A stretch of DNA of 64,000 bases from Phycisphaera sp. (GTDB taxonomy: Bacteria > Planctomycetota > Phycisphaerae > Phycisphaerales > Zrk34). The stretch covers positions 1 to 64,000 of the forward strand of contig WGMA01000016.1 of NCBI GenBank assembly GCA_016125285.1. The letters are read 5' to 3'. This document shows, one piece after another, positions 25,980 through 54,066 of this stretch. Each line of letters starts with the position of its first letter. Positions within the stretch are counted from its first letter, which is position 1. The notes beneath the pieces are model-generated. The model was not told where the DNA came from. It saw only the letters and a list, made by a program, of their open reading frames with translations, and did not search any database. The translations under genes were made by a program, and so were the position numbers.

Positions 25980-26040
25980 GCGGCGATCCTTATGTGTTGG
26001 GTCTTGTAACAACGGCGCGACCGGAGGGCGAGATGGCGTG

Positions 26041-26787: not shown

Positions 26788-26895
26788 GGCGTGTCTCCCT
26801 TTGCGGAATCGGCGATGGCCCCGTGCGTGATCTGCGTGCGGGATTATAGGCACGGGATCAGCCGGGCGACGGCGACGGGGCGTTGCCGGGAATCG

Positions 26896-30954: not shown

Positions 30955-31153
30955 GGAAAACACTCCACTGGGGAACCGTCGATTCAACTCAAAAGCGGAT
31001 CACGACCGATCGTCAGCCGCGTGCCCGCAATCCAGTGTAGGCCGTCTTAACCTTTTAGGAAAACGGGGTCGCCCAGATACCCGCGTGCGTGCTAAAGTGG
31101 TTCACCTACCGACGGACTGGGCATTCGTCGATACCCCCAACCGGAGACGCCGC

Positions 31154-33552: not shown

Positions 33553-33594
33553 TCCTTCAGCCGCGCCCAACGGCGCCCGCCGCGACCAACACAC

Positions 33595-34101
33595 GTGACC
33601 GAACTGCCCACCCGATTCCGCGACTGGACCAACCGGTACTCCGCGCCCGTGACGGTGCTGTGCCTCGTGGTGCTGCTGCTCTGCGGCGCGACGCTGTTCT
33701 GGTCGAAGTCCGCCAGCAGCGTGCCGATCGAGCACCAGGCGTGGTACCGCGACTCGGTGACCGGCGAGACGTTCATGGCCGCCGAGCAGCTGCCGCCGAT
33801 CGTCAGCCCCGCGGGCAACCCCTCGGCGCGCGTGTACTACTACGGGTGCGGCGCGTGCGGGGACGACGATCGTTTCGTCGGCTACTACTACAAGCTTTCC
33901 GACGGGGCGATGCGGCGCATCGCCGAGAACCCGCAGCTCGAGGCCGCGGCATGGGGCCCGCGGTTCCCGGGTCGCATGTACTCGCTGGACGGCGAGACGT
34001 GGGTCGAGGCGCCGGACCCCGCGTCGGCGGGCGTCGGCGCCGCGCTCGCCAAACGCTGCTCGGCGCCCAACTACCTGCGCGAGTGTCGCGAAGGCCCGTG
34101 A
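33595..34101 (+). CDS. Hypothetical membrane-anchored protein
   Basis: GTG start. The N-terminal TM is VTVLCLVVLLLCGATLFW. The Cys-containing ectodomain includes YYYGCGACGDDD. No family was recognised. Confidence 0.45.
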   Translation: MTELPTRFRDWTNRYSAPVTVLCLVVLLLCGATLFWSKSASSVPIEHQAWYRDSVTGETFMAAEQLPPIVSPAGNPSARVYYYGCGACGDDDRFVGYYYKLSDGAMRRIAENPQLEAAAWGPRFPGRMYSLDGETWVEAPDPASAGVGAALAKRCSAPNYLRECREGP

Positions 34102-34141
34102 CGCAGACGCTGCGCAGCGCACCGTTCCACATCGAGGCACG

Positions 34142-35014
34142 ATGACCCGCAACCGCACGACATCACAATCACGCCAACCCCGCCGCGGCTTCACGCTCAT
34201 CGAGATGCTCGTGACCCTCGCGATCATCGCCGTGCTGCTGGGCATCCTGCTCCCGGCGATGAGCAAGGCGCGCAAGCGCGTGATGGCGGTCGTCGGCGAC
34301 TGGAACATCCCCACCGACAACCTCGTGGCGTTCTATCCGCTGCTCGGCGCAGACGTGCCCGGGCGGCTGCCCAACAACCTCGGCAGCCCGAAGGTCGTGT
34401 TCGACCAGGACGCGCAGCTCGATGTCATCGAGTTTGATGGTTCGTTCACGCTCGGCGTGCTGCCGCCGGTGTTCGACAACCGCCAGGAGCTGACGGTGAT
34501 GTTCTGGGCGAAGGGCGACGACGCGCTGCCGCAGGCGACCGCGGCGTTCTGGCTCGAAGGGCCCGGCGCGGGCGGACGCGTCGCGCTGGTGCACCTGCCG
34601 TGGTCGAACGGCAACGTCTACTTCGACGCGGGCGACGGCTCGTGCTGCCCCGACCGCATCTACACCGCCGTGCCGCCCGAACTCTACAAGGGCGAGTGGA
34701 CCTTCTGGGCGTTCACGAAGAACGCGAAGACCGGCGAGATGAAGATGTATGCCAACGGCGAACTGATCGCCAGCGGCTCCGGGCACAAACGCGCGATGGC
34801 CGACACCGCGAGCCTGTGGATCGGCTCGGCGCCCGGCGGCGCCAATCGGTACCGCGGCCGGATGATGATGCTGGGCTTCTACGATCGCGTGCTCGACCCC
34901 GAGCAGATCAAGGAGTACGCCGCCGCCCAGCCGGGGCTCGTGCAGGCGTACCAGGGCAAGCTGTCCAGCCGCATCAACGCCGTGGGCAAGGGCCTGCGGA
35001 CGGTTAAGGAGTGA
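34142..35014 (+). CDS. Prepilin-type N-terminal domain fused to a LamG/ConA-like lectin domain
   Basis: RRGFTLIEMLVTLAIIAVLLGILLP is followed by LTVMFWAKGDD, WTFWAFTKN and YRGRMMMLGFYDRVLDPEQI, which is the LamG pattern. Confidence 0.75.
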   Translation: MTRNRTTSQSRQPRRGFTLIEMLVTLAIIAVLLGILLPAMSKARKRVMAVVGDWNIPTDNLVAFYPLLGADVPGRLPNNLGSPKVVFDQDAQLDVIEFDGSFTLGVLPPVFDNRQELTVMFWAKGDDALPQATAAFWLEGPGAGGRVALVHLPWSNGNVYFDAGDGSCCPDRIYTAVPPELYKGEWTFWAFTKNAKTGEMKMYANGELIASGSGHKRAMADTASLWIGSAPGGANRYRGRMMMLGFYDRVLDPEQIKEYAAAQPGLVQAYQGKLSSRINAVGKGLRTVKE

Positions 35015-35050
35015 TCCACGAGCGCGGCGCAGGGCGCATAGATCACGTCG

Positions 35051-35338
35051 ATGGCCCTGATGCTTTATTGGATGGCGATCGGACTCTGCGTCGGCGCGTT
35101 CGGCGGATGGTTCACCGCGCGGTGGGGCGAGCCGATCGGCGAGGCGATGTATGTGTCGGCGCGCGCCGCGGCGTTTTGGGCGTTCGTGGCGACGCTGCCG
35201 TGGCTGATGCCGTATGGGTGGGCGGGCTTCTTGGCGTCGCCGTTGCTGCTGGGCGGCGCGGGCGTTTGTGCGTCGCCCGCGGGGCTGATGGGCGCACTGA
35301 TTACACGCGAACTGCACGAACTGTCGCGGTCGGGGTAA
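35051..35338 (+). CDS. Small hypothetical membrane protein
   Basis: 95 aa with three hydrophobic helices and high GC3. No family was recognised. Confidence 0.4.
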   Translation: MALMLYWMAIGLCVGAFGGWFTARWGEPIGEAMYVSARAAAFWAFVATLPWLMPYGWAGFLASPLLLGGAGVCASPAGLMGALITRELHELSRSG

Positions 35339-35358
35339 TCAGCCGCGTGACCAGCCGG

Positions 35359-35571
35359 TCACCACTGATCGTCGTCGACCTCGTCGAGAAAACCGATGAC
35401 GTCGCTGTCGGACGGGCTGCCCGCCGCCGCGGCGACATGGGGCAGGTCCTCGACGACGACGTGGATCGTGTTGCCGCACGGCTCGCAGCGGATCACCTTG
35501 CCGATGTACTCGAAGGGGATGCCGTGCTTCCGGCCGCAGTGCGGACAATAGATCTTGAACAGCTCAGCCAT
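35359..35571 (-). CDS. Small zinc-ribbon protein (MJ0042-type CxxC...CxxC) with an acidic tail
   Basis: ATG 35571 follows GAGG. The sequence is MAELFKIYCPHCGRKHGIPFEYIGKVIRCEPCGNTIHV with a tail DEVDDDQW. Confidence 0.55.
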   Translation of the reverse strand: MAELFKIYCPHCGRKHGIPFEYIGKVIRCEPCGNTIHVVVEDLPHVAAAAGSPSDSDVIGFLDEVDDDQW

Positions 35572-35820
35572 GGTCAACACCTCGCTTCAGGCGTCAACGG
35601 TCGCATCGAACGACCGCGAAACAGAACGACACGCGGAAGGCGTGTGGAGGTGTAAAGGAGCGGCGCCCCGCCGGGGGGATCGACGGAGCGCCGTGGTGGT
35701 GAGGATCTCGGTAAGGCGGTCGCGGCCGATGTGCGTCGGCGTCGGGTTCGCGGTCTCCGGTCGATCGGACCGTGACCCGCGGATGCGTGCGTGCGACCTG
35801 TCAATGCAGTCAGCCATTGC

Positions 35821-36051
35821 TTATTGCGTCGCGGTTTCGGGCTTCTTGGTGTTGCTGACGTTGATCACTTGCGGCTGCGTGCCGTCGGTGTCTTCACCGG
35901 GCGACGCAAACGCCGCGGCGGGCGCCTCCGTCGGGGGGCCCATGATGATCGGTCCCCGCGCGTTCGGCGCCGAACCGTTCTCCGAGCAACCGCCCAGCGT
36001 CAAAGCGAACACCGCGAACAGAATCGTGATGGAACCTGCGAGCCTCGACAT
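35821..36051 (-). CDS. Small lipoprotein
   Basis: ATG 36051 follows AAGGGA. MSRLAGSITILFAVFALTLGGC is a lipobox. I preferred it over the mirror-frame + ORF on RBS and n-region charge. Confidence 0.5.
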   Translation of the reverse strand: MSRLAGSITILFAVFALTLGGCSENGSAPNARGPIIMGPPTEAPAAAFASPGEDTDGTQPQVINVSNTKKPETATQ

Positions 36052-36522
36052 GACTATCCCTTTCAACACAACGGTATCAAATACCACTTGACGTGAATCA
36101 CTCAGCAAACCGGGTTGTGAGTCCCAATCCGCAAACCACTTTCGCCCGTGTGAGACGTGCCGGAACACGGAGCGAAATTGAACGCAACCGACTCGCCTGG
36201 CAAGGAAAATCCCAACGAAACCCCGTACAGGGAGCCTTGCAAGGCCGTCCGTGGGGTCAACACGCTTGAAAGAACGCATGTGACATCACGAACAAGAACA
36301 ACTTGTCTGGTTAGGTGCGGGTCGGCGCTGCTTGACCGTCAGGGAGGAGAGATGAATAAGGCCGGGTACTGAATAACCTGACGTTCAAATTTCAGCGCGT
36401 GTCTCGATTACCGCAAAGCAATGATGTGAAACTTCTACTTCCGTTACCAAATGAACAGTAGCAACGGTCGAAATGAGAGTCAACTATTTGGTTAAAAAAT
36501 TGGGCAAGTTCCATGCGGTATT

Positions 36523-37737
36523 TCACGTCGGCTTGGCGTCGTCGTTGGCGCGTGATCCGGCGGTCTGCTGGCGGTATCGGCCGGGCGTGACGCCGAGCCG
36601 CCGCTTGAAGAGCGTCGCCAGGTGCTGCGGGTGGGCGAAGCCGGTGCGCCGGGCGATCCGCTCGAGCGTCAGGTCCGTGTCGCGCAGTAGCCGCTGCACG
36701 TGCTCGAGGCGGACACGCGTGATCTCCGCCTTGGGCGATCGGCCGAGCGCGGCGCGCATCTTCCGCTCCAGCGAACTCCGCGACATCGGCACGGCGTCGA
36801 GCACGTCCTCCGTCGTGATGCCCCGGTCGGCGTTCTCGCGGATGAACCGCACCGCATCGGCGATGTCTGCGTCGGCGATCGCCACGACGTCCGAAGACTG
36901 ACGCGTGACGATGCCGATCGGCGGCACCTCGATGGCGCGCGGCTTCGTCGGCGTCTTCGCGCCGCGCCCGCCGCGCCCGCGCATCAGGCCGTCCAGCAGC
37001 CGCGCCGCTTCGTAGCCGATCCGCTCGGCGTTGAACGTCACGCTCGACAGCGGCGGCGTCGACATCAGGCAAAGCGACTCGTCGTTCTCCGCGCCGACCA
37101 CCGCCATCTCCTCCGGCACCGCCACGCCCGCGCGCCGGCACGCGTCCAGCAGCCAGAACCCCAACTGGTCCGTGCACGCCAGCACGCCCACCGGCTTAGG
37201 CAGCGACGTCACCCACGCCGCGAGCCGCTCCTGCTCGCGCTCCCACTCGCGCGGCTTCTCCCGCTGACCCGCCGCGTGGTACACGCTCACCTCGTGCCCC
37301 AGCTCGCGCAGGTACTTCACGAACGTGTCCCGCCGCTGTGCGAAGTACGCCTGCGTGTCAATGTCGTACACGGCGAACCGCGTGAAGCCGCGGTCGATCA
37401 GGTGCTCGGCGACCATGCGCCCCAGCGCCGCGTTGTCGACGCCAACGAACGGCAGGTCGTGCCGCAGGTGCGTGGCGCGCAGCTCCACCGCCGGCAGCCC
37501 GAGCCGACGGATCACGTTCGCCGTCGCCTGCACCTCCGTGCGCGTGAGGATCCCGTCGCCTCGCCACCGGCTCAGCCACGGCGGGGCGTTCGTGTCCAGG
37601 TGCCGCAACTCCACGTACAGCGACCACGGCCCGTGCTCGTCGACGTAACGCTTCACCCCGCGCAACAGCCCGCGGCCGTAGCTCCGCGACGTCTCGATCA
37701 GCAACGCCACGTGCGGCGTCTTACGCGTGCGCGCCAT
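36523..37737 (-). CDS. XylR-like transcriptional regulator (periplasmic-binding-protein-type sugar sensor plus AraC-family HTH)
   Basis: ORF trimmed to ATG 37737. The N-terminal LacI/PBP-like fold includes VALLIETSRSYGRGLLRG. The C-terminal AraC HTH includes SRSSLERKMRAALGRSPKAEI and GFAHPQHLATLFKRRLGVTPGRYR. Confidence 0.8.
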   Translation of the reverse strand: MARTRKTPHVALLIETSRSYGRGLLRGVKRYVDEHGPWSLYVELRHLDTNAPPWLSRWRGDGILTRTEVQATANVIRRLGLPAVELRATHLRHDLPFVGVDNAALGRMVAEHLIDRGFTRFAVYDIDTQAYFAQRRDTFVKYLRELGHEVSVYHAAGQREKPREWEREQERLAAWVTSLPKPVGVLACTDQLGFWLLDACRRAGVAVPEEMAVVGAENDESLCLMSTPPLSSVTFNAERIGYEAARLLDGLMRGRGGRGAKTPTKPRAIEVPPIGIVTRQSSDVVAIADADIADAVRFIRENADRGITTEDVLDAVPMSRSSLERKMRAALGRSPKAEITRVRLEHVQRLLRDTDLTLERIARRTGFAHPQHLATLFKRRLGVTPGRYRQQTAGSRANDDAKPT

Positions 37738-37858
37738 GTTGCGCCTCCGATCCGGGGGAAATCGCGTGACAAAAATTCGCAATAAGTTTACGCAATTCGT
37801 GAATGACACGCACGCGCCGCGCGTCGGATAATGGCCCGTAACCGATCACCGAGGCACG

Positions 37859-38650
37859 ATGACCATGAGCCACAACCGCCGCACTGCCTTCACACTCATC
37901 GAACTGCTCGTCGTCGTGTCCATCATCGTGTTGCTGGTCGCGATCCTGCTCCCGGCGATGAGCAAGGCGAAGGAGTCCGCCCGCCGCGTGGTCTGCGCGT
38001 CGAACCAGCACCAGATCGGCCTGGCCCAGACCTACTACGCCAACGATCATCAGCAGCGCCTGCCCCCGGCGTTCCGCGGGCTGACCTCAAAGAACGTCTT
38101 GCCGCACATCATCTCCGAGGACGTCTGGCCGCTGCTGCGCGACCGCAATCGCCTCACCGCACAGGTGATGTTCTGTCCGTCGAGCTACCGCCCCGTCAGC
38201 GGGACCACCGAGCGTGTCGGCGCGCCGGACGACGACCTGACGCTGTGGGCGGGCAACTCGTCCTGGCCGAGCGGCTGGGAGATCGGCTACTTCGTGCTCG
38301 GCAACATGTGGGGCATGTCGCCCGGCGCGACGGACCCGAAACCGGACGTGAAGATCACGCCGCGCACGCTCGCGGACCCGGGCATGTCGCACCTCACCGC
38401 CGACAAGAACATCTCGTGGCAGGCGAACACGAATACGGGCCTGCAGTGGATGGCTCACCCGGCCGACCGCGAAGGCACGACGATGCCCGACGGCACGAAT
38501 CGCGGCTACCTCGACGGCCACGTCGAGTGGGTGTTCCCCGACCACATGGGCCGCGACGAGACCGCGCTCGAGCCGACCGGCACGTGGATGTGGGGCGGCG
38601 TCGAGAAATACGACCACTGGACGCCGGGCGATCGACGCTACTACTGGTGA
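37859..38650 (+). CDS. Prepilin-type N-terminal domain protein, DUF1559-like
   Basis: [27 protein letters not shown] at the N-terminus and [10 protein letters not shown] near the C-terminus. Confidence 0.8.
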
Positions 38651-38651
38651 C

Positions 38652-40037
38652 ATGAATCCACTACACCAACAACACGACCGCTTAATGACCGCGTGCGTCG
38701 TCGCGCTGCTGCTCGTCGTTGGCGCGTTCGCGTCCACCGTGGCTCGCGCCGACGACAAGCCCAACTTTGTCGTCATCCTCACCGACGACCAGGGCTACGC
38801 GGACCTGGGCTGCTTCGGGTCGCCGACGATCCACACGCCGAATATCGATCGCATGGCGCGCGGCGGCGTTCGGCTCACGAGCTTCTACGCGGCCGCGCCG
38901 ATCTGCACGCCCACCCGCGCCGCGCTGATGACCGGCTGTTACGCCACGCGTGTCGGCCTGCCCACGCCGCTGCACGTCTTCGACGAGATCGGTCTCAACC
39001 CGGCCGAGGTCACGCTGCCGGAGGTCCTCCAGCAGCGCGGCTACCGCACGGCGTGCGTCGGCAAGTGGCACCTGGGTCACGCGCCGGCGTTCTATCCGAC
39101 GCGCCACGGCTTCGACGTCTACTGGGGCACGCCGCTCGGCCACATGTTCGACCGCCCCGCGGTAGGTAAGGCGGTGGGCGACACGTCCGACCTGTTCCTC
39201 GACAACGAGACCGCGATCGCGTTCCCCGACCACGGCGATCTGACCGAACGGCTCACCGACGTCGCGGTGCGATTCATCGCCGAGAACAAGCGGCGGCCGT
39301 TCTTCCTGTTCGTGTCGCACCCGATGCCGCACGAGCCGCTGGCCGTGTCGCCGCGCTTCGCCGGCAAGAGCAAGGGCGGGCTGTACGGCGATGTGATCGA
39401 GTGCATCGACTGGAGCACGGGCCGCATCCTCGCCGCGCTCGAAGAGCACGGGCTGACGGAGCGCACCGTCGTGATCTTCACCTCCGACAACGGCCCGAAG
39501 AAGGGGCACGGGTCGGCCGCGCCGCTGCGCGGATTCAAGCATCAGCCCTACGAAGGCGGCGTCCGCGTGCCGTGCGTCGCGTACGCGCCGGGGCGCATCC
39601 CCGCCGGGCGAACCGTTGACGCCATCACGACGGTCATGGACCTCTATCCGACGCTCGCCGGTCTGGCCGGTGCGCCGGTGTCGCCGCAGCAGGTGCGCGA
39701 CGGCAGGGACATCTGGCCGCTGCTGACCGGAGAGTCGAACGCCGAGCCGGCGCACCGTGAGTTCTTCTACTTCGTCCGGCACGGCGTGCTCGCCGGCGTG
39801 CGCGACGAACGCTGGAAGCTGCTCGAGCAGAAAGGGCTGACGGAGCTATTCGACCTCGTGGCGGACATCAGCGAATCGAGCAACGTCGCCGGGCAACACC
39901 CCGAGATTGTCGCGCGGCTGACCGCGCGCATGCAGGCGTTTGAGAAGGACGTGACGGAGACCAAACGCCCGCCCGCCGGCGCGAAGGCGACGACGCACGT
40001 GAGCAACGGGCAGCAGCATCAGGAGCAACGGCAATGA
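38652..40037 (+). CDS. Cys-type sulfatase (arylsulfatase A family)
   Basis: A signal peptide is followed by KPNFVVILTDDQGYADLGCFG and the active site CTPTRAALMTG. It starts 1 nt after the upstream stop. Confidence 0.9.
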   Translation: MNPLHQQHDRLMTACVVALLLVVGAFASTVARADDKPNFVVILTDDQGYADLGCFGSPTIHTPNIDRMARGGVRLTSFYAAAPICTPTRAALMTGCYATRVGLPTPLHVFDEIGLNPAEVTLPEVLQQRGYRTACVGKWHLGHAPAFYPTRHGFDVYWGTPLGHMFDRPAVGKAVGDTSDLFLDNETAIAFPDHGDLTERLTDVAVRFIAENKRRPFFLFVSHPMPHEPLAVSPRFAGKSKGGLYGDVIECIDWSTGRILAALEEHGLTERTVVIFTSDNGPKKGHGSAAPLRGFKHQPYEGGVRVPCVAYAPGRIPAGRTVDAITTVMDLYPTLAGLAGAPVSPQQVRDGRDIWPLLTGESNAEPAHREFFYFVRHGVLAGVRDERWKLLEQKGLTELFDLVADISESSNVAGQHPEIVARLTARMQAFEKDVTETKRPPAGAKATTHVSNGQQHQEQRQ

Positions 40038-40933
40038 TGAGACGACGTGAATTCTGCAAGACGATCGGCGTAGCCACGGGCGCGGTGCTCGGTGCACGCC
40101 TCGGCGTCGGCGCGGCCCACGCGGCCGATGCGCCGTTCAAGCTCAACTACCTCGTCGCATCGGCGTTGTACGGCAAGCTGCCGCTGGCGGAGGTCCTTCC
40201 GGAGGTATCGAAGCTCGGGTCGACGCACATCGACATCTGGCGACTCAATCACGCCAATCAGCGCGAGCAGATCGACGCGATGGGGCTCGACGCGTACGCC
40301 TCGCTGCTCGACCAGCACGACGTCAAGATGGCGTGCACGACGATCTGGGGCGGCGACTTCGTGCCCGAGCTCGACTTCGTCAAACGCTTCGGCGGCGACA
40401 CGCTCGTGACCGGCTTCGTGCCCGACTCGAGCAAGAAGGGCGACACAATCCAGACGCTGCTCGATAAACACCGTGCGGGCATCGAGAAGGCCGCGAGCCT
40501 CGGCGTGACCGTCGCGTTCGAGAACCACGGTGCGTCCATCGACGACATGCGCCGCTTCGCCGACGCGATCCGCGACATGAAGGGCGCCGGCATCGCGTTC
40601 GCCCCGTATCACCTGCCGCAGGACCCCGCGGCGCTGGCGTCGTTGATTGAACACATGGGCCCGACGATGAAGCTGTTCTACGGCTGGCAGCACGGCATGG
40701 GCTGCATGACCAAGCTGCCGAAGGAGCAGGAACTGCTGCAGCTGCCCGGTCGCGGCGACCTCGACTTCACGCCGCTGCTCACGGCACTCAAGAAGACCCA
40801 TTTCACCGGCTGGACCGAGATCTTCATGCACCCCACGCCGCGCGGCATCCCGATCATGCCCACCGCCGCGGAGGTCACCGCGGAGATCAACCGCGCACGC
40901 AACTATCTCGAACAATGCCTCGCGAAGGCGTGA
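40034..40933 (+). CDS. Tat-exported sugar phosphate isomerase/epimerase (xylose-isomerase-like TIM barrel)
   Basis: ATGA overlap with the upstream stop. The twin-arginine leader is MMRRREFCKTIGVATGAVLG. The TIM-barrel pattern includes THIDIW, VAFENHG and WTEIFMH. Confidence 0.7.
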   Translation: MMRRREFCKTIGVATGAVLGARLGVGAAHAADAPFKLNYLVASALYGKLPLAEVLPEVSKLGSTHIDIWRLNHANQREQIDAMGLDAYASLLDQHDVKMACTTIWGGDFVPELDFVKRFGGDTLVTGFVPDSSKKGDTIQTLLDKHRAGIEKAASLGVTVAFENHGASIDDMRRFADAIRDMKGAGIAFAPYHLPQDPAALASLIEHMGPTMKLFYGWQHGMGCMTKLPKEQELLQLPGRGDLDFTPLLTALKKTHFTGWTEIFMHPTPRGIPIMPTAAEVTAEINRARNYLEQCLAKA

Positions 40934-40974
40934 TTGTCATCAGTAACCCCATCGACCGCACGAAGGAAGCACCC

Positions 40975-41562
40975 ATGAGTAACAAGGTTCTTATCGTCAT
41001 CGGCGACGCGTCCGAGACGCTCGACACGATGTATCCGTTCTACCGCCTGCAGGAGGCGGGGTTCACGCCCGTCGTCGCCGCGCCGGAGAAGCGGAAGTAC
41101 CAGATGGTCATGCACGAGGTGAAGCCCGGCTGGACCATCACCAAGGAGTGGGAGGGCTACACGATCGACGCCGACGTGGCGTTCGCGGAGATCGACCCCG
41201 ATGACTACGCCGGCATCTTCTTCAGCGGCGGGCGCGCGCCGGAGTACATCCGCTACGACGAGGACCTCGTGCGCGTCACGCGGCACTTCTTCGATCGCGA
41301 CAAGCCGATCGCCAGCGTGTGCCACGGCGTGGAGATCCCGGCGTACGCGGGCTGCGTGAAGGGCCGACGGATGGCGACCGTGCCGAAGTGCAGGTTCGAC
41401 CTGGAGGTGTGCGGCGGCGTGTTCGTCGACGAGGCGTGCGTGGTGGACGGCAACCTCGTGAGCGGGCGCACGTTTCACGACAACGGGCGGTACTTCGGCG
41501 CGTTCATCAAGCTGCTCGAAGAGGCGCGTGCGGCGGCAAACGCGGAGGCGCGCAGCGCGTGA
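40975..41562 (+). CDS. DJ-1/PfpI family protein
   Basis: ORF trimmed to ATG 40975. [11 protein letters not shown] and the nucleophile elbow [12 protein letters not shown] are present. Confidence 0.8.
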
Positions 41563-43826
41563 GGCTGACGCTCTACATCTCGATGATGGCGACGTTGCTC
41601 ATGTGCGGACTCGCGCACGCGGCGGATGCGCCGCAGGCATCGCACCCGATCGTGCCGGGCTTCGAGCGGTTCTACGCGACCGGCGAACTCGACGACGCGG
41701 CGCTGGCCGACGGCGGCGAGTTGCTGCTGGCCGAGCTGAACTGCGTGGCGTGCCACGCGGTGGACGACGCGACGCGCGCCCGGCTCAACGCTAAGCCCGC
41801 GCCGGACCTGACGAACGTCGGCACGCGCCTCGATCGAACAGCGATCCGCGACATGATGCTCGCCCCGCACACGCTCAAGGCGGGCACGACCATGCCCGCG
41901 ATGTTCGCCGGTGACGACGGACCGAAGCGTATCGGCATGATCGTCAGCTTCCTCGCGTCGCTGAGCGGCGCCGGGGCGGACGGCGAGCGCGCGTCATCGT
42001 CGGCGCCGTCGCCGGGCGGTTCCGCTGAGCGCGGACGTACCGTGTATCACACCGTCGGCTGTGTGGCGTGTCACGACGCGGATCGCGGCACGGGTGACAG
42101 GGCCGAGGCTTTGCCAACGTCCGTGCCGATCGCGCTGGCGGGGCGATACGACGTGTCGGCGCTCGCGGCGTTTCTGCGCGATCCGTTGGCGGCGCGACCG
42201 GCGGGGCGCATGCCCGCGACGCACCTGACGGCGCAGGAGGCCGCGGACGTCGCGGCGTACCTGCATCAACGGCTGGAGAACGACACGGGTGAAGGGCCGC
42301 CACACCTGGGCCGCATGCCGGCGCACGTCATCGCCGAGGGACAGCGTCAGTTCACCGAGCGGGGCTGTGCGGCGTGCCACACGGTCACGATCAACGGCCG
42401 ACGCCTCGCGTCGACGCGCACCGCGCCGTCGCTGGCGACGCTGCAACCCGAACAACGCGCCGGTTGCATGAACGCCGAGGCGACCGATGGCGTGCCGCAC
42501 TACGGACTCAACGACCGGCAGCGTGCCGCGCTGACCGCGGCGATCGTCCGGCTGCGCGATGACAACATCAAGCCGCTCACACTCGCGCAGCGCGTCGATC
42601 GGACGATGACGCAGCTCAACTGCTACGCGTGTCACAAGCGCGGCGACAAGGGCGGCGTCGAGGCCGAGCGCGCGGCGTATTACACGGTGACCGAGCCGAA
42701 GGCCGAGGCGCTGGGCCCCGAGGGCAAGCTGCCGCCGGTGCTGACGATGGTGGGGCGGAAACTGACGCGCGAGGCGCTCGGTGCGGTGCTCGCCGGCAAA
42801 GCGGATCGCGTGCGGCCGTACATGGGCGTGCGCATGCCGGCGTTCGGCGCGGCGGCGACCGCGCATCTTGTCGACGACTTCGACAAGGCCGACGTGTGGG
42901 ACCACCCGATCCAAATCGACACGTCGGGTGGACTGCGTCACCAGCGCGAGCGGTACGGTCGCTCGCTGATCGGCGTCGAGGGCCTGAACTGCGTGACGTG
43001 TCACGGGATCAAGGGCAAGGCGTCGCTCGGCGTGCCCGCGCCGGACCTGACGTACGTGACGCATCGGCTACAACCGGAGTACTTCAAGGCGATGCTGCTG
43101 AACCCGCAGGCGTTGCGGCCAGGCACGATGATGCCGCCGCTGTTCACGGGGCGGAAGAACGCGGACATCGAGATCGAGCAGCTGTGGACGTACCTGAAGG
43201 AGGCGGACCAGCGACCGCTGCCGACGGGGCTGCTGGATCGCGGCACGTACGAGTTGAAGCCGGACGCGACGAGCGGGCCGATCGTGTTCCGCACGTTCAT
43301 GGAAGGACCGAAGGGCGAGGCGCTGACACGTGCGATCGCGGTGGGGATGCCGTCGAAGACGCACGCGGCGTTCGACGCGACGCGCGGTGCGTGGGTGATG
43401 GCGTGGCGCGGCGCGTTCATCGACGCGATGGGCACGTGGGACGACCGCTTCGCGCCGCTGGCCAAGCCGCTCGGCGACGACGTGCGCGCGCTGCCGGTCG
43501 GGCCGACGCTGGCGCGGCTCACGAGCGGCGACGCGAAGTGGCCCGGCGCGTGGGCCGATCGCGACGTTTACCGCTTCGGCGGATACCGCGTCGGTAAGGA
43601 CGGCGGGGTGACGATGCTTTACACGGTCGACGGCTTGTCGGTGGAGGACACGCTGCACGCCGCGTCGGACGGGCACGGGCTGCGGCGAACGGTGAAGCTG
43701 AGCGCTCGTGGCGGTGAGGATGCGGCACGCGACTGGTGGTTCCGCGGCTACGGGCACACCGCGGAACCACGGCGCGTGTCGCTGACCGACGGCGTGGAGA
43801 CGATCGAGGAGGTGATCACGTGGTGA
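41559..43826 (+). CDS. Secreted multi-CxxCH c-type cytochrome domain protein (PVC-type heme-binding)
   Basis: GTG 41559 overlaps the upstream stop (ATG 41583 is an alternative). The signal peptide is [16 protein letters not shown]. There are five CxxCH motifs: CVACH twice, CAACH, CYACH and CVTCH. Confidence 0.8.
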
Positions 43827-45355
43827 ACGTGCGCTTAACGATGCTGGCGATCGCGACGCTTGCGCTCGCCGCGACGTGCGCGTTCGGCGCGGCGACGCCG
43901 CCCGACGCGTCGGCCGAGTCGGCGCAACGCCAAGCGGCGCGCGCCGACGAGATCGCGCGACACTACCAGACGGTCACCGTCCCGTTGCCCAGCGGGCTCA
44001 AGCTCGAGGCGAGCGGCCTGGCGGCGTTGCCAGACGGGCGACTCGCGATCGCCATCCGCAAGGGCGAGGTGTGGATCGCCGACGGCGTCGAGTCGAAGAC
44101 GCTCACCGACAAGAACGTGCGTTTCACCCGCTTCGCATCCGGTCTGCACGAGCCGCTCGGTCTGACGCTGCACGACGGTGACCTCTACACGACGCAGCGC
44201 AGCGAGGTGACGCACCTGCGAGACACCGACGGTGACGGCGTGGTCGACGAATACCTCACCGCCGGGACGGGCTGGGGCGTGTCGGGCAACTATCACGAAT
44301 ACGCGTACGGCCCGGTGTTCGATCACGCAGGGCGCATGTGGGTGACGCTTAACACGACGATCGGCAAGCCGCTCGTCGATGACGTGGCGTGGCGCGGCTG
44401 GTCGATGGTGCAGGACAAGCCCGGCGGGGACATGCGGCCGGTCAGCGCGGGCCTGCGCTCGCCGATCGGCATCGGCGTCAATCACGAGGGCGATGTGTTC
44501 GCGACGGATCACCAGGGCAACTGGTTCCCGACGTGTCCGCTGCTACACCTCAAGCCCGGCGCGTTTCACGGACACGCCGATGCGCTCAAGTCATCGAAGC
44601 TGGCGGGCGCGACAGTCACCGGCATCGGCAAGCTGCCGGAAGGTAAGACGGTCGGCGAGGTGGCGCAGCTTGTGTCGCAGTATCAACTCCCGGCGGTGTG
44701 GTTCCCGTACGGCAAGATGGGGCAGGGCACGACGGGGATCGTGTGCGACGAGACCGGCGGGAAGTTCGGGCCGTTCGAGCACCAGTTCTTTGTCGGCGAG
44801 TTCACGCTGTCGCGCGTGAGCCGGGTGTGGCTGGAGAAGGTCGGCGGCGAGTATCAGGGCGCGTGCTTCCCGTTCCTGGCGGGGTTTGACTCGGCGGTGG
44901 TGTCGCTGGAGTTCGGGCGCGACGGTTCGCTGTTCGTCGGCGAGACGAACCGCGGGTGGAACTCGGTCGGCGTGCGATCCTTCGGGCTGCAGCGCGTGCG
45001 ATTCACGGGCAAGACGCCGTTCGAGATCCAGTCGATGAGCGCGACGTCGGACGGGTTCGTGCTGACGTTCACCGAGCCTGTCGACACGAAGACGGCGGGC
45101 GACCCGGCGGCGTACCGCATGAGCAGTTACACGTACCGCTACAGCCCGGCGTACGGCGGCGACGAGACGAACACGCGGCGGCTCACGATCAGCGCCGCGC
45201 GCGTGCTCGACGAGCGCCGCGTACGGCTGACCGTCGACGGCCTGCGCGCGACGTACGTGCACGAGCTGCACGCCGAGGGCGTGCGCGCCGCCGACGGACG
45301 CACGCTGCTGCACGCCGAGGCGTACTACACGCTCAATCGCATCCCGTCGGAGTGA
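43823..45355 (+). CDS. Beta-propeller dehydrogenase-like protein (PVC putative membrane-bound dehydrogenase / sorbosone-dehydrogenase-like)
   Basis: GTGA overlap with the upstream stop, plus a signal peptide. [54 protein letters not shown] and [13 protein letters not shown] are present. I recall the family pairing with CxxCH proteins in PVC genomes. Confidence 0.65.
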
Positions 45356-45390
45356 TCGGCGTAGCACCGTGCGACATCCCTGAAAATGAC

Positions 45391-45426
45391 CAATGCCCGA
45401 GGCGCTCCACTCGCCATCGGGCATTG
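45391..45426. terminator. Stem-loop between convergent genes (candidate bidirectional terminator)
   Basis: CAATGCCCGA-(16 nt)-TCGGGCATTG forms a perfect 10-bp stem. Confidence 0.55.
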
Positions 45427-45455
45427 CTCGTTTGTGTCGAACTGATCTGTCGTGT

Positions 45456-46652
45456 TTACCGCTGCGCCTGCAGCGGTGTCGACTGCATCCGCTGCCAGCC
45501 GACGGTGGAGCCGACGTTGGGGTCGAGATTGGCGTTGTTGGACAGCAGGTATTCGCCGGACTCGGAAACCCACACGTCGCGGTAGCTGCTGGGCAGGTCG
45601 ACGGTGTTGCCGGTGTAGGGGTTGGCGTACTGATCGACGCCGCGGACGTAATTGGAGAACTGGCGATTGACACGGTCGTAGGTGCGCTGCTGGTTCTCGT
45701 ACGCGGATCGGTTGATCTCGCGGATCTCGTCGCTGGCGCGGGCGATGTAGCGGCTCAGCTCGCCGGCGCTGCGGATCGCCCCGGCCTGGCGGTTGTTGAA
45801 CAGCTGCACGACGTAGAGGTATTCGGTGAGCCACTCGGGGCTGACGCGGACGCTCGACACCATCGCGTGCATCACGTCGGACCGCGCGTTGAGCTGACCG
45901 GCGGGGGCGCGGAACGAGTAGAGCCGCACCGGCGTCCACAGCGTCGTGCCCGGCGCGACGGGGCTGGTGGTGTAGGCGATCGCGACGTAAAAGTCTTCTT
46001 CGTACGCGACGCCGTGGAAGTAGTACGCGATGCGGATGCGTTCGGCGGAGACGGTCTTGCGGGTGCTCGGCTCGGCGATGGACGTGGCGAGCGTCTGCGC
46101 GACGTCGCGCATCTCGCGGTGGTCGACGAGGCGCGGCTGGATGCCCGGGCGGATGCTCGGCAGCAACTGGTCGACATACTGCACCGGCGACAGCGGCCGA
46201 GCGACGATGTTGCCGAGGTAGTTGCTGCCCTCGGGGAATCCGTAGTAGCCGCGATCGGACCACGTGTAGTTGATCGACGGGTAGACCTGCAACGCCTCGC
46301 CGCCGTCGGGGTTCCACGCCAGCATCGACACGGCCGCGAGGTTCGAGCGGTCGTGCATCCACACCACGCCACCCTGGCTGCGCCAGCCCTGCGGCACGAG
46401 CATGCGGAACGCTTCGATGTTGTTGATCTGCGCGTCGCGGACGACGAGCGGCGCGAGGCGCACGGCCTGGCCCGCCAGCGACGGATCGGCCTGCTGGCCG
46501 CGCGTCGCCGCGGGCGCCGCGATCAGGATCGCCACCACGATCGCCGACCCGAGCCCGCGCCCCGGACGTCTCGGCCCGCGCGGCTTACGCTGCACGCCCC
46601 GACTCGACTGTTCTCGATTCCCCCGCATCGAACTGTGATTCAGCGTCTGCAT
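45456..46652 (-). CDS. Hypothetical secreted protein
   Basis: ORF trimmed to ATG 46652. A basic N-terminus precedes the hydrophobic segment AIVVAILIAAPAA. 398 aa with high GC3. No family was recognised. Confidence 0.5.
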   Translation of the reverse strand: MQTLNHSSMRGNREQSSRGVQRKPRGPRRPGRGLGSAIVVAILIAAPAATRGQQADPSLAGQAVRLAPLVVRDAQINNIEAFRMLVPQGWRSQGGVVWMHDRSNLAAVSMLAWNPDGGEALQVYPSINYTWSDRGYYGFPEGSNYLGNIVARPLSPVQYVDQLLPSIRPGIQPRLVDHREMRDVAQTLATSIAEPSTRKTVSAERIRIAYYFHGVAYEEDFYVAIAYTTSPVAPGTTLWTPVRLYSFRAPAGQLNARSDVMHAMVSSVRVSPEWLTEYLYVVQLFNNRQAGAIRSAGELSRYIARASDEIREINRSAYENQQRTYDRVNRQFSNYVRGVDQYANPYTGNTVDLPSSYRDVWVSESGEYLLSNNANLDPNVGSTVGWQRMQSTPLQAQR

Positions 46653-46828
46653 GACCTTTCCCCTGTCTGGCCCACGACGTGGCATCGCCGGGCGTTCTTG
46701 TCTTCGTGTTCCTCACCGCAACGCCGTGTTGCGTGCTGTATACCCGAACAATAGTGTTCAAAATACACGAAGTCAAAGAATCGGGGAAATAACGTACATT
46801 TCGCATAAGTTGGGCTGGAAACGGAGAT

Positions 46829-48145
46829 TCAGGTGAGGCTCAGCGGGCCGTCGGCGCAGTAGTCGGGGTTGCCGAAGGTGTTGATGCGGTGGCCGAACCC
46901 GTGGGCGAGCGCCATCAGCAGGCGGTTGTGGGCGACGCCCTTGAACTTCAGCGAGCGGCCCATCTTGAAGTCGAGCCCGCCGCCGACCAGCACGAACGGG
47001 ATGTTGTCCAGCGTGTGGCTGTTGCCCTTGCCCAGCTCGTTGGTCCAGACGATCAGCGTGTTGTCGAGCAGCGTACCCTCGCCGCCGGGCTCGGGCGTCT
47101 CGGCGAGCTTCTTGGTGAGGTACGCCAGCTGCTCGCAGTACCACTTGTTGATGCGTGTGAGCTTGTCCTTCGCGTCGTTGTTGGAGTCCGGCTCGTGCGA
47201 CAGCCCGTGGTGTCCCTCGTCGATGCCCAGCCAGCGCATCTTCGCCTGCCCGACCGAGCGGGTGAACTGCAGCGTGGCGATGCGGGCGAAGTCCGCGGCG
47301 AAGCTGTTGACCAGCAGGTCGATCTGCGTCTGGCTGATCTTCGGCATGTTGTCGTTGTCTTCGACGATGCCCGGCTCGAGCGTCGGCACGGCGTGGTCGT
47401 TGCCGCGCTGCTTCGACGCCTGCAGCTCGCGCTCCATCTCGCGCACCCACTGCGCGTGCTCCTCGAGCAGGCGGCGGTCGTCGGCGCTGACACGCGTGCG
47501 CAGCTTAGCGAGGTCTTCCTGCAGCTCGTCGAGCACGCTCTTGAGCGACTCCTGGTCCTTCACGCGGCCGTACATCTTGTCGAACATCTGGTACGGGTCG
47601 TCGATCGGCGCCAGCGGCTGGTTCGGCCCGGCGTACGACATGCGTGTCCAGGTGTCGGCGCGTTCGGGCACCATGACGCCGAACTCCAGCGAGCCGAAGC
47701 GCGTGCGCGTCGCGGCGTTCTTCTGCAGCTGGTTCTTGATCTCCTGGTCGATGGAGATGCCGCTGGACCAACCGGCGGGCGTGTGCGAGCCGCCCTGGAT
47801 GTTGCCGGGGAACAGCTCGATGCCGGTCAGCAGGCAGCCGATGCCGCGCATGTGGTTGTCGCCGTCGCCGCGCACCTTGTCGCACACGCCGTTGAGGAAC
47901 AGCGTGCGGTTCTTGAACGGTTCGAGCGGCGAGGTCGAGTCCTTGAGGTTGTAGTTTTCGCCTTCCTCGCCGGGCCAGAAGTTCTCGGGGATCACGCCGT
48001 TGGGGCTGAACATGACGATCAGCCGCTTCTTGCGCTGCGTGGTCTGCGCGAAGCCGAGGCTGGGCATGTTGAGCAGGAACGGCAGGGCGGCGGCGCTGAG
48101 GCCGAGCTCCTGCATGAACTGTCGTCGTGTCTGTGGCTTGCCCAT
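46829..48145 (-). CDS. DUF1552 family protein (Tat-type leader)
   Basis: [54 protein letters not shown] and IPFVLVGGG are present. It lacks the GGWDTH signature that I would expect of DUF1501. Confidence 0.7.
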
Positions 48146-48166
48146 GGCGCTACTCCTTGCCCTTCC

Positions 48167-50572
48167 TCAGTTCGATTTCGCCTCGGCCTTCGGTCGGTCG
48201 GGTGCGGTGGTCGCGATGGTCACCGCGGCGTTGACGATCAGGTCGCGGATGTTGTAGCCGTGCGCCGCGAAGTCGCGACGCAGCTGCTCGGCCTTGTCCT
48301 GACCGTAGGCCATCATCGACTGCTTGGCCAGGTGATGGAACAGCTGCATGACGAACGCGTCGTGCGTCTCTTCGCTCTCGGCCAGGAAGCTGGCCAGGTC
48401 GTACGCGTCGTTGAAGTTGCGGACCTTGCCGGTCGGCAGCTCGTACGCGCCGCGCGCGTCGATCGGCTTGCCGAACTCCTTGTCGCGGAACCGGCCCACG
48501 GCGTCGAACTGCTCGAGCGTGAAGCCCAGCGCGTTGATCATCCCGTGGCACGCCTGGCACGCCTTCGGCTCGGTCTGCAGCGTCACGCGCTGACGCGTGG
48601 TCATGCCCGGGTGCAGGTCCGGCGCGAGCGGCGCGACGGCCTTCGGCGGCGGACGCAGCGCCCGGCCCAGCACGCTCCGCACGATGAACACGCCGCGGTG
48701 GATCGGCGACGTGGCGTCCGGGTACGCGAACCGCGCCAGCACGTACGGGTGCGTCAGCACGCCCACGCGCTTCGGCGTCGTCGCGGCGACCTTCTCGAAC
48801 GGCGCGTCCTTCGGCAGGTTCACGCCGTAGTACGCGCCGAGACGACCGTTGACGTACATCGCGTCGGACGTCAGCAGCTGGCGGAAGTCGCCGCTGCCGT
48901 TCCACACCACGTCGTCGAGGAACAGGTCCAGCGACGTCCGCAGGTCCGAGGTGACCGCGGCGTCGAAGCCCTTGAACTGTTCCTTGTCCTTGGCCATGTC
49001 CGGCACCTGCTCGATGTCGAGCCAGTAGTGCATGAACTGGCGGACCTTCGCGTGGCAGCGCGGGTCGTCGAGCATGCGCTGCGCCTGCCGGGCGACCTGG
49101 TCGGGCTTGGCGAGCTGGCCCTTCGCCGCCGCGTCGAGCAGCTGCCGATCGGGCAGCGAATCCCACAACGCGAACGACAGCCGCGACGCCTGCGCGTACG
49201 CGTCGTCCTCGTCGCCGCCGAGGTTGTGGTACAGGAACCGCGGTGACTCCATCGTCAGCATCACCACGCGTTTCAGGCCGAGCTTGATGTCGTCGGCGCC
49301 CTCGAACTGCTTGTCGACGTAGAGGCGACGCTCGAAGTCGGTCAGCGGGCGGCGGAAGGCGCGCTCGACGAACGTCGCGGCGAACGCGCGGACCTTCTCG
49401 TCGCGCTTGTCGTCCTTGATGCGCGTGTTCGACAGCTCGTACATGTGCCCCACGACGTAGTCGGCGACCTCGATCGCCGCGCCCGTCGTCGCGTCCGCCC
49501 ACGCCTTGGACACCGACGACCCGCGCTCGTAGCCGACGCTGCGATCGTCCGGCGGGAACGGCGTGTTCAGCACGCAGACCTCCGTCGCGCTCGTCGGCGA
49601 CAGCACCCGCGCGGGCACGACCTCCACCTCGCGGTGCGGCGGCCGCCACCACAGCTCCACGAAGCTGTGCTCGGGCAGCTTGCTCTTGTGCTCCTTCTCG
49701 TCGCCCACGCCCTGGCTGTGACACGAGAACTCCACCGCCAGCGGGTACACCTGCCCGGCGATCAGGAAGATCGTGCCGCGGTACTCGATCTGGTTGCCGG
49801 ACTTCACCCACGCGTCGATGAACGCGTCCTTGGTCTCGGAGAACTCGTTATCGTCGCGGTTGCCGCGGCCGTCCTGGTTCAGCCAGAGGCGCACGGCGTG
49901 ATCGCTCTTGAGGATGAACTCGTAGTTGCCGGTCTCCGGCGCGACCAGCGCGCCGCTCCAACGGGCGCTGAAGCCCTTGGGATCGAACCTGTCGTACAGC
50001 GGGTTGGACTTGTCGAAGTGCGCCAGCACGGACGGCTCGATGCGCTCTTCGAGGCGGTCACGCCCCATCGAGCGGCCCTTGAAGAACTCGGCGCGCAGGC
50101 CGTCACGCTTGTCGAGGCTGACGTTGCGGCGGAACGAGCCGATCAGGTCGGCCACGACGTTGCGGTGCTGCGTGACGGTCAGCCGCGACAGCTCGATCCG
50201 CGGCGGGCGGTGACGGGCCTGGGCGATCGGCGAGTAGAACGCGTCGTAGATGTAACGCGACACCGCCTCGGCGTCCTTGCCGACGCACTGCTCGGGCTTG
50301 TCGTCCGGCATCGATTTGGTGACGTAGTTGGTCAGCTGGGGGACGGTCTTGTCGCCGACGAGCGGCTTGGAGTACTCGCCCTTCACGCCGCCGCCGGTCT
50401 TGCCGTGGCACGACGCGCACCGCTTCATGTAGATGCTTTCGCCGGGCTCCTCGGCGCGGCCGGTGGCCGTCGCCAGCAGCGCCAACACGACCACGCCCGC
50501 GACGAAGACCGCGGTGTGCCCTGGATGACGCGTGCCCAACCCAAAGTGAAACTTCCGCTTCGGGGTCATCAT
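48167..50572 (-). CDS. DUF1592/DUF1588/DUF1585-type planctomycete cytochrome-c domain protein (partner of DUF1552)
   Basis: ORF trimmed to ATG 50572. It has the N-terminal heme motif CASCHG. It has a DUF1588-like segment VGVLTHPYVLARFAYPDATSPIHRGVFIVRSVLG. It has a DUF1585-like segment CQACHGMINALGFTLEQFDAVGRFRDKE. Confidence 0.75.
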   Translation of the reverse strand: MMTPKRKFHFGLGTRHPGHTAVFVAGVVVLALLATATGRAEEPGESIYMKRCASCHGKTGGGVKGEYSKPLVGDKTVPQLTNYVTKSMPDDKPEQCVGKDAEAVSRYIYDAFYSPIAQARHRPPRIELSRLTVTQHRNVVADLIGSFRRNVSLDKRDGLRAEFFKGRSMGRDRLEERIEPSVLAHFDKSNPLYDRFDPKGFSARWSGALVAPETGNYEFILKSDHAVRLWLNQDGRGNRDDNEFSETKDAFIDAWVKSGNQIEYRGTIFLIAGQVYPLAVEFSCHSQGVGDEKEHKSKLPEHSFVELWWRPPHREVEVVPARVLSPTSATEVCVLNTPFPPDDRSVGYERGSSVSKAWADATTGAAIEVADYVVGHMYELSNTRIKDDKRDEKVRAFAATFVERAFRRPLTDFERRLYVDKQFEGADDIKLGLKRVVMLTMESPRFLYHNLGGDEDDAYAQASRLSFALWDSLPDRQLLDAAAKGQLAKPDQVARQAQRMLDDPRCHAKVRQFMHYWLDIEQVPDMAKDKEQFKGFDAAVTSDLRTSLDLFLDDVVWNGSGDFRQLLTSDAMYVNGRLGAYYGVNLPKDAPFEKVAATTPKRVGVLTHPYVLARFAYPDATSPIHRGVFIVRSVLGRALRPPPKAVAPLAPDLHPGMTTRQRVTLQTEPKACQACHGMINALGFTLEQFDAVGRFRDKEFGKPIDARGAYELPTGKVRNFNDAYDLASFLAESEETHDAFVMQLFHHLAKQSMMAYGQDKAEQLRRDFAAHGYNIRDLIVNAAVTIATTAPDRPKAEAKSN

Positions 50573-50874
50573 GGCGGAATTCAATGCCGCGAGAACGCGA
50601 AAGTGAAGCGCCGGCAGAATTTTGTAGAGCGATTGAGACAAATGCGTGTGCCCGTGGAGGTTCGTGTCGAGCGACGCGGCGCGTCGCTCTATCGATCTAT
50701 TGGCCCGAACGCGCGGATTGTTACGCGCCTGGCGGCGGTCGGGGACTGATTGATTCGTGCAGTGCTTTGATTCGATCGGAGCTTGGTTCGGCGAGGTTCT
50801 TGCCCCTACAATGCGGCCACGATCGCTCACGTGGGCACGTGGGTGGGCACACATACACGTCCAATTCAGATGGG

Positions 50875-53847: not shown

Positions 53848-54066
53848 GTCTTGCGCCGCGGCGATCCGCCAGTGTGGGCCGGTTGGCGCGGTTCGAGCCA
53901 AAATGCCACGCCGGCGCGGACCGCGCGGCGGTGGTCGGGATACAATGCCCCCGCACCGGGACCGGGCGACGGCCCACCCCGCTGACCGTCCGACGGCGTT
54001 GTCGGGCGGGAGGTCACACGCGTGACCTCGACTACTCAATCGCGATGGGCACGCGAAAGGATCGAT

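Follow-up and report, generated by a model that had tools for sequence, protein, structure and literature searches.

A putative cytochrome-linked sugar dehydrogenase cassette joined to a sulfatase and a pilin-like gene in a six-gene operon of Phycisphaera sp.

A 64,000-nt stretch of contig WGMA01000016.1 of Phycisphaera sp. (assembly GCA_016125285.1; hereafter the window; GC content about 67%) contains six same-strand genes, g1 to g6, which encode a pilin-like protein, a sulfatase, a TIM-barrel protein, a DJ-1/PfpI protein, a multihaem cytochrome and a beta-propeller protein. By the logic of their sequence, the six genes are one tightly coupled transcription unit. In relatives, the conserved unit is the cytochrome and the propeller, the TIM barrel and the DJ-1 protein are a frequent add-on, and the sulfatase, the pilin and a divergently encoded regulator are lineage-variable parts. 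The six-gene set is better seen as a conserved, putative cytochrome-linked dehydrogenase cassette with a lineage-added sulfatase and pilin-like gene. The best reading of the cassette is that g6 acts like a sugar dehydrogenase with g5 as its dedicated cytochrome. The six genes are the following (Tat, twin-arginine translocation).

37859-38650 (+): g1, prepilin-type, DUF1559-like protein, 263 aa
38652-40037 (+): g2, exported Cys-type S1 (formylglycine) sulfatase, 461 aa
40034-40933 (+): g3, Tat-exported xylose-isomerase-like TIM barrel (AP_endonuc_2; Tat motif RRREFCK), 299 aa
40975-41562 (+): g4, DJ-1/PfpI protein without signal peptide, 195 aa
41559-43826 (+): g5, exported five-haem c-type cytochrome, 755 aa
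43823-45355 (+): g6, exported six-bladed beta-propeller with a C-terminal beta-sandwich domain (DUF7133), 510 aa

Occurrence of the six genes in relatives

The window proteins were mapped onto 80 fetched genome loci encoding g6 relatives (cited below by numbers with the prefix L). According to the record titles, about 54 of these loci belong to Verrucomicrobiota, 17 to Planctomycetota, 6 to Bryobacterales and 3 to other or unclassified organisms. The cytochrome gene was located immediately upstream of the propeller gene in 64 of the 65 loci having enough sequence. The TIM barrel was present in 32 of 61 loci and the DJ-1 protein in 26 of 61, with both in 23. It is because of these occurrence counts that we regard the cytochrome and the propeller as the conserved unit. 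The DJ-1 orthologues are encoded between the TIM barrel and the cytochrome and, being 69-85% identical, represent the most conserved protein of the set. The pair is widespread: a relative was encoded in at least 550 of 600 candidate stretches from species-level genomes, and g6 matched upwards of 3,900 protein clusters with E-values of 0.001 or lower.

Sulfatase genes occupied 10 of 139 positions flanking the cassette, as against 16 of the 596 positions elsewhere, a modest enrichment (odds ratio 2.8, p = 0.018) that supports an association of sulfatases with the module. Same-strand sulfatase genes were encoded directly upstream of the TIM barrel in L004, L005, L011, L030 and L044, and directly upstream of the cytochrome in L023 and L026. 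The whole layout of regulator, sulfatase, TIM barrel, DJ-1, cytochrome and propeller was found again in L019, L030 and L044. The partner sulfatases are 24-37% identical to g2 and are therefore from different subfamilies, and most cassette loci have none. Among the fetched loci, prepilin-like genes were detected near the cassette only in L002, L033 and L037, the one in L002 being directly upstream of the TIM-barrel gene and overlapping it; recurrence of the pilin-like gene is limited to a few Phycisphaerae.

A sequence-only reading of this DNA had proposed that the six genes form a single pathway, and synteny in relatives had been set beforehand as a test that could refute it. Synteny holds for g5 and g6 and partly for g3 and g4; for g1 and g2 it is weak. 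With sulfatase partners that are divergent or absent and a pilin-like gene missing from nearly all loci, the six genes do not represent one conserved pathway.

Some relatives show elaborations of the cassette. L072 (Planctomycetaceae) carries two tandem cytochrome-propeller pairs at 2420-11374, and the propeller of the second pair shares 44% identity with g6. The cassette of L052 (3061-11311) is interrupted by two sulfatase genes, inserted after the TIM barrel and before DJ-1, and genes for a PhyH dioxygenase and an FG-GAP protein are located upstream. The combination of PhyH, FG-GAP, cassette and sulfatase recurs in L014 and partially (PhyH, cassette and sulfatase) in L032. A gene for a MetE-like protein of about 390 aa, with the catalytic domain Meth_synt_2, stands beside the cassette in four loci, either between the regulator and the sulfatase (L030 and L044) or directly 3' of the propeller (L054 and L068). 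A role of the cassette in sulfatase maturation was considered and rejected, since most cassette loci have no sulfatase.

The cytochrome-propeller pair and its partner proteins

The fold of g6 is a six-bladed beta-propeller of the soluble glucose dehydrogenase (sGDH) type. Its best structural matches are sugar dehydrogenases, with dehydrogenases dependent on pyrroloquinoline quinone (PQQ) as the clear top structural class. Because of these matches, a periplasmic sugar-oxidising redox chain is the best reading of the pair, and the near-obligate pairing of the two genes is likewise in favour of the redox chain that the sequence-only reading had proposed. At the sequence level, g6 was recognised only through DUF7133, through NHL repeats and through a TIGR02604 match that stayed under its threshold (2.2e-10, 40.5 bits against a cutoff of 122.2). 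The invariant polar residues of g6 (H109, E110, H158, R212, Q231, W379, N380 and R391) map to D-A and B-C loops in the modelled blades, at the top face, which would correspond to the face holding the sGDH active site. The only segment that hhalign aligned with an sGDH sequence was short, R212-S213-P...Q231-G232-N of g6 against R228-N229-P...Q246-G247-P of the cofactor and metal site of sGDH (E 0.13); this weak but sensible match is no more than a lead. A 2026 preprint describes PQQ six-bladed propellers encoded beside mono- and di-haem cytochromes in carbohydrate loci including sulfatases, and its nine-residue CcPDH signature is a reference for PQQ/metal and catalytic residues (catalytic His, Arg-Asn, Gln-Gly-Pro, Trp-Asn and a C-terminal Arg; bioRxiv 10.64898/2026.07.10.737718). 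A full-text literature search recovered no paper for the names DUF7133 and DUF6797, and nothing specific was found in the literature on the gene combination of the operon.

The cytochrome g5 has five CxxCH motifs, each within a class-I-like cytochrome c unit (Cytochrom_C, 1.1e-27), and exactly five were found in all 63 of 63 full-length orthologues. This five-haem, 755-aa architecture has almost no solved relative. The C-terminal non-haem domain of about 195 aa showed a weak, below-cutoff match to DUF6797 (0.0037). Residues 560-755 gave 1349 matches in a representative library; in each of the top 150 the domain had an equivalent C-terminal place in a cytochrome of some 750 aa, and no propeller fusion occurred among these 150. 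TIGR02603 also remained below its cutoff (1.8e-9, 37.7 bits against 68.15). An identification of g5 as SoxX was rejected. The NCBIfam equivalog model for SoxX (TIGR04485) gave g5 a score of 84 bits, above its cutoff of 61. However, this score is the sum of two of the five cytochrome c units, the model describes a mono-haem protein of about 78 aa as opposed to 755 aa, and neither soxA nor any other sox gene is nearby. Automatic annotation could thus mislabel g5 as SoxX.

The product of g3 matched PF01261 above threshold and has a TIM-barrel fold; 8tcd, 8bvk and 8ro4 were the reference structures for the 3-keto-glycoside 1,2-lyase/beta-eliminase subgroup of these barrels. The product of g4 matched DJ-1_PfpI (PF01965, 1.5e-32, 113 bits), possesses the Cys-His nucleophile elbow ASVCHG and scored 130 with the NCBIfam PfpI subfamily, just short of the cutoff of 139. 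Its best solved relative is DJ-1D of Arabidopsis (2e-50), which is a glyoxalase III. By analogy, this suggests that g4 may handle reactive dicarbonyls.

Relatives of g1, g3 and g4 are also found with a different oxidoreductase. L083 (2732-6493) encodes orthologues of the pilin-like protein (48% identity), the Tat-exported TIM barrel (46%) and the DJ-1 protein (76%), followed by a Tat-exported Gfo/Idh/MocA oxidoreductase in place of the cytochrome and the propeller. The closest homologues of g3 (63% and 53%) are encoded directly 3' of Tat-signal Gfo/Idh/MocA genes, one of them with a divergent sulfatase gene. Because relatives pair either the pilin-TIM-DJ-1 set or the TIM barrel alone with Gfo/Idh/MocA enzymes, the cytochrome and propeller are suggested to be an interchangeable periplasmic sugar dehydrogenase. 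An exported Gfo/Idh/MocA dehydrogenase is known to make a 3-keto-glycoside, which a TIM barrel annotated as "sugar phosphate isomerase" then cleaves by elimination (bioRxiv 10.1101/2024.03.25.586180), and in the levoglucosan pathway the TIM barrel is likewise reported to act after oxidation (PMC7676230). The adjacency of TIM-barrel homologues to Gfo/Idh/MocA dehydrogenases, together with the action of known TIM partners on keto-sugars, speaks against the order proposed earlier, in which isomerisation precedes oxidation.

Operon layout, regulator, sulfatase and pilin-like protein

Gene junctions were read straight from the DNA letters, protein families were assigned with Pfam and NCBIfam, and export signals were assessed by eye. 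The operon is accompanied by the following features (HTH, helix-turn-helix; ORF, open reading frame).

36523-37737 (-): regulator of XylR-like architecture, combining an AraC-type HTH with a sugar-binding domain like that of periplasmic binding proteins
37803-37832 (+): promoter-like site ATGACA-18 nt-GATAAT, in the 121-bp divergent intergenic region
45391-45427 (no strand assigned): stem-loop, probable terminator, between g6 and a convergent 409-aa ORF

The stop codon of g1 is followed after one base by the start of g2 (TGA, one base, ATG), g2 and g3 overlap by ATGA, and GTGA overlaps are present at both the g4/g5 and the g5/g6 junctions. At the g3/g4 junction, on which the sequence-only reading had given no detail, a 41-nt gap is most likely, with a Shine-Dalgarno sequence (AAGGAAG) 7 nt 5' of the ATG at 40975. 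An alternative ATG at 40915 would give a 19-nt overlap with g3; the short form is the start used by orthologues. The promoter-like site is the only sigma-70-like match in 37600-45600, agreeing with the consensus at 10 of 12 positions (a consensus match only). The same sigma-70 consensus scan thus found no promoter-like site within the operon, and internal terminator-like matches were no more frequent than expected from shuffled sequences. The terminal stem is formed by CAATGCCCGA (45391-45400) and TCGGGCATTG (45418-45427), with 10 bp plus four inner pairs. A 100-nt fold including it is stable (folding free energy -40.2 kcal/mol, z -3.64), none of 200 shuffles being as stable, and the tail that follows, CTCGTTTGTGT, is weak in T-richness as a U-tract. 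No RNA family was detected by an Rfam scan of 35000-47000. The signals are prepilin-type in g1, Sec-type in g2, g5 and g6, and Tat in g3, with none in g4. The structural description given by the sequence-only reading was accurate in all these respects: the positions and families of the six genes, the 1-nt spacer, the ATGA and the two GTGA overlaps, the 10-bp terminal stem-loop, the export signals on all products except DJ-1/PfpI, and the two-domain regulator.

The regulator showed strong matches to Peripla_BP_3 (4.4e-34) and HTH_18 (1.8e-21), and PBP1_XylR scored 22.5 bits, below its cutoff of 27. Its ORF extends to a GTG at 37809, and translation probably begins at the ATG at 37737. Homologues head the cassette layout in L002 (58% identity), L030 (52%), L044 (49%) and L019 (28%). 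The promoter regions beside the 58%-identical regulators (37760-37815 in the window and 3040-3100 in L002) have a loose, AT-rich likeness, with AAAAATTCGCAAT in the window against AAAAATCTGCAAAT in L002, AATGACAC against AATGACGC, and AATGAC in common. These AT-rich elements might be operator or promoter elements.

The product of g2 is an S1 sulfatase, with a strong Pfam match (PF00884, 3.1e-64, 217.6 bits) and an export signal seen by eye. Its maturation motif (C/S-x-P-x-R, here in CTPTRAALMTG) and the second signature GKWHLG align with the active-site regions of STS, 9fo1 and 6bia. The best full-length solved relative is 9fo1, an S1_16 kappa-carrageenan sulfatase (1.8e-69), followed by 6bia and then by S1_19 carrageenan sulfatases. 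This likeness in sequence hints at 4-O-sulfated galactosides as the substrate.

The window holds three sulfatase genes and four prepilin-like genes in its 64 kb. A second pilin-sulfatase pair is encoded on the minus strand, where 28 nt separate a prepilin-type gene (26041-26853) from the S1 sulfatase gene that comes after it (24483-26012). This pair (24483-26853) lies downstream of a gene for a 1363-aa protein (26896-30987, -) combining a methyltransferase, a PQQ_2 beta-propeller and LamG. A ThuA-like gene (54022-55119) precedes the third sulfatase gene (55130-56794, +) by 10 nt, and upstream of the two is a gene for a PQQ_2 propeller protein of 1067 aa (50584-53787, +). Proteins of the ThuA family are tied to keto-disaccharide metabolism.

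The pilin-like protein g1 matched N_methyl with 25 bits (cutoff 21.2) and SBP_bac_10 with 26.1 bits, the latter only over the first 40 profile positions, which represent the N-terminal part of DUF1559. The family alignment shows a prepilin-type N-terminal helix, two conserved cysteines and a C-terminal G-x-NR-x-YLDG-x-VEW motif. The predicted cleavage site TA/FTLIE has the glutamate at +5 and alanine instead of glycine at -1, as do several homologues. Three full-length orthologues were found, with about 50% identity. To our knowledge, no function has been assigned to any member of the DUF1559 / H-X9-DG family. Since g1 recurs with the TIM-DJ-1 genes in L002 and L083, a lineage-specific accessory function is suggested, for example in substrate binding or scaffolding. 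DUF1559 paralogues are very numerous in planctomycetes, the counts being 74 for R. baltica and 68 for P. limnophila (PMC2754498, PMC10632474). A general association of pilins with sulfatases found no support: among 80 metagenomic prepilin-like loci, with flanks of up to 5 kb, a sulfatase was found in 3 and a Gfo/Idh/MocA gene in 2, the scan being keyed on the N-terminal helix and so covering the broad family and not g1 orthologues.

A DUF1559-like prepilin gene that clusters with g1 in sequence is located just upstream of the regulator at 32749-33552 (+). The same gene cluster (32749-35014, +) includes a 168-aa ORF without a family match and a gene for a prepilin-LamG protein (34142-35014). 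On the other side of the operon, the 409-aa ORF convergent with g6 (45456-46685, -) has a GC content of 0.91 at third codon positions and a strong coding bias and has no Pfam match. Its sole recurrence in the fetched loci is in L001, a contig from Logan with 100% identity to the window across the genes that the two share. Beyond it, at 46829-50854 (-), a DUF1552 gene stands beside a PSD-family gene (DUF1592, DUF1588, DUF1595 and DUF1585) with cytochrome c and PA14 domains. A similar pair of DUF1552 and PSD-cytochrome genes adjoins a Gfo/Idh/MocA-TIM locus in L086.

Proposed pathway and likeness to known systems

We propose the following mechanism. The S1 sulfatase g2, placed before the module in this Phycisphaera lineage, would admit sulfated sugars, possibly 4-O-sulfated galactosides. 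The propeller g6, with a fold like that of the PQQ-dependent soluble sugar dehydrogenases, would oxidise the sugar or glycoside and pass electrons to its dedicated cytochrome g5 and from there to the aerobic respiratory chain. The Tat-exported, metal-dependent g3 may then perform enolisation-type chemistry on the carbonyl sugar, namely isomerisation, dehydration or beta-elimination. The DJ-1D-like g4 could remove reactive dicarbonyl products, much as a glyoxalase III or a deglycase does, and the membrane-anchored g1 is perhaps a substrate-binding or scaffolding factor. By analogy with characterised systems, the likely order is desulfation, oxidation and then TIM-barrel chemistry on the keto-sugar. 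Taken as a whole, the model of a sugar-inducible operon around a periplasmic propeller-cytochrome dehydrogenase seems to us probable, if not by much.

Several observations weigh against this model. The Pfam model GSDH (PF07995) matched g6 at E 0.15 with 11.7 bits, below its cutoff of 25 (weak matches were seen in 7 of 20 members of the g6 family, the best at E 0.009), and no sGDH in the PDB was matched by the g6 profile at E up to 10. At two positions of the sGDH PQQ/Ca site, g6 has Ser for Asn and Asn for Pro. Since the sequence score is below threshold and the residue evidence is indecisive, the membership of g6 in the PQQ family is not established. The sulfatase partners are heterogeneous and missing from most loci, and neither a glycoside hydrolase nor a transporter is encoded within the six-gene operon. 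Finally, g4 has no export signal while all the other products are exported, and may either have a cytoplasmic role or be carried out by Tat hitch-hiking with a Tat-exported partner.

Other explanations of the gene set were weighed. The six genes might be a mosaic of convenience, in which the cassette has its own substrate unrelated to sulfated glycans, and the sulfatase and the pilin are abundant paralogues co-transcribed in a sulfatase-rich island. The low identity of the neighbouring sulfatases to g2 and their lack in most loci fit such a mosaic, as do the abundance of sulfatase and prepilin-like genes in the window with its second pilin-sulfatase pair, the 68-74 DUF1559 genes per planctomycete genome and the rarity of sulfatases near prepilin-like genes. 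On the other hand, g1, g2 and g3 are translationally coupled with no promoter-like site between them, and flanking sulfatases are enriched about 2.8-fold, recurring on the same strand upstream of the TIM barrel or the cytochrome, or between the TIM barrel and DJ-1 in L052. Moreover, the complete layout headed by the regulator occurs in three other loci. We consider a mosaic unlikely.

Quite unlikely, in our judgement, is a linear pathway in which the sulfatase frees a sugar, the TIM barrel isomerises or epimerises it, and the propeller oxidises the isomer with transfer of electrons to the cytochrome. The order of reactions is not fixed by the order of genes, and roughly half of the loci with cytochrome and propeller lack a TIM barrel, hence the dehydrogenase is not dependent on it; homologous TIM barrels, moreover, pair with Gfo/Idh/MocA enzymes, and in characterised systems the TIM barrel acts after oxidation. 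The propeller might also be no dehydrogenase at all, being instead a lactonase, a lyase or a binding protein, with the cytochrome serving another use such as reductive or detoxifying electron delivery. This is very unlikely, as the near-obligate coupling to a multihaem cytochrome indicates redox chemistry, PQQ dehydrogenases lead the structural matches, invariant His, Arg and Gln-Gly residues occupy the D-A and B-C loops, which make up the active site of sGDH, and the pair is swapped for a Gfo/Idh/MocA oxidoreductase in L083.

A far-reaching form of the dehydrogenase model can be imagined. The pair would be a new class of respiration-coupled periplasmic glycoside or sugar dehydrogenase, replacing the Tat-exported Gfo/Idh/MocA enzymes in the oxidative (non-Koshland) glycan breakdown of PVC (Planctomycetes-Verrucomicrobia-Chlamydiae) bacteria and Acidobacteria, so that desulfated algal glycans feed the respiratory chain, and the DJ-1 protein, exceptionally conserved and without a signal of its own, would be a subunit of the TIM barrel that hitch-hikes via Tat. 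The conjunction of all these points is rather improbable. The carriers of the cassette, Verrucomicrobiota, Planctomycetota and Bryobacterales, dominate sulfated-polysaccharide turnover in marine and soil environments. Should the pair prove to be a respiratory dehydrogenase of sugars or glycosides, an energy-conserving periplasmic route would be added to glycan catabolism in these phyla, the DUF7133 and DUF6797 proteins would gain a function, and the abundance of Tat-exported "sugar phosphate isomerases" would be explained. The swap with Gfo/Idh/MocA enzymes also provides a testable hypothesis on the class of the substrate.

Among known systems, the PQQ-dependent soluble six-bladed sugar dehydrogenases (sGDH, Asd/YliI, TTHA0570 and the fungal AA12 pyranose dehydrogenase) may be compared with g6, whose GSDH match is sub-threshold and whose sequence has no PDB match. 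Unlike the sGDH-type enzymes, which have mono- or di-haem cytochromes as partners, g6 is paired with a cytochrome of five haems and 755 aa that carries a DUF6797-like domain; it also has Arg-Ser for Arg-Asn and an extra C-terminal beta-sandwich. The PVC-type haem-binding CxxCH proteins, in which the TIGR02604 propeller ("membrane-bound dehydrogenase" domain) and the TIGR02603 haem domain are fused, occur in the same phyla and follow the same logic of a propeller with c-type haem. However, g5 and g6 are separate genes, g5 has five haems, and both scores are far below the cutoffs.

The DUF1559 / H-X9-DG family shares with g1 a prepilin-type N-terminal motif (N_methyl), the hydrophobic helix and the ...NR-x-YLDG-x-VEW motif. 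In contrast, g1 matches only the first 40 profile positions, has Ala at -1 and is translationally coupled to a sulfatase or, in an orthologous locus, to a TIM-DJ-1-dehydrogenase set. The inositol-catabolism pair of IolG (a Gfo/Idh/MocA dehydrogenase) with IolE or IolI (a TIM-barrel inosose dehydratase or isomerase) differs in being cytoplasmic and NAD-linked, without cytochrome, sulfatase or export signals, and the identity is 15-16%. The AL/BT cluster of Alistipes and Bacteroides (Tat Gfo/Idh/MocA, TIM lyase and DUF1080) and the levoglucosan pathway have a TIM barrel of the same superfamily and an exported dehydrogenase as its partner, and the authors of the AL/BT work mention cytochromes as possible re-oxidants (bioRxiv 10.1101/2024.03.25.586180). 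The operon of Phycisphaera sp. may be regarded as a variant of both the quinoprotein-type periplasmic dehydrogenases and the oxidative keto-sugar pathways.

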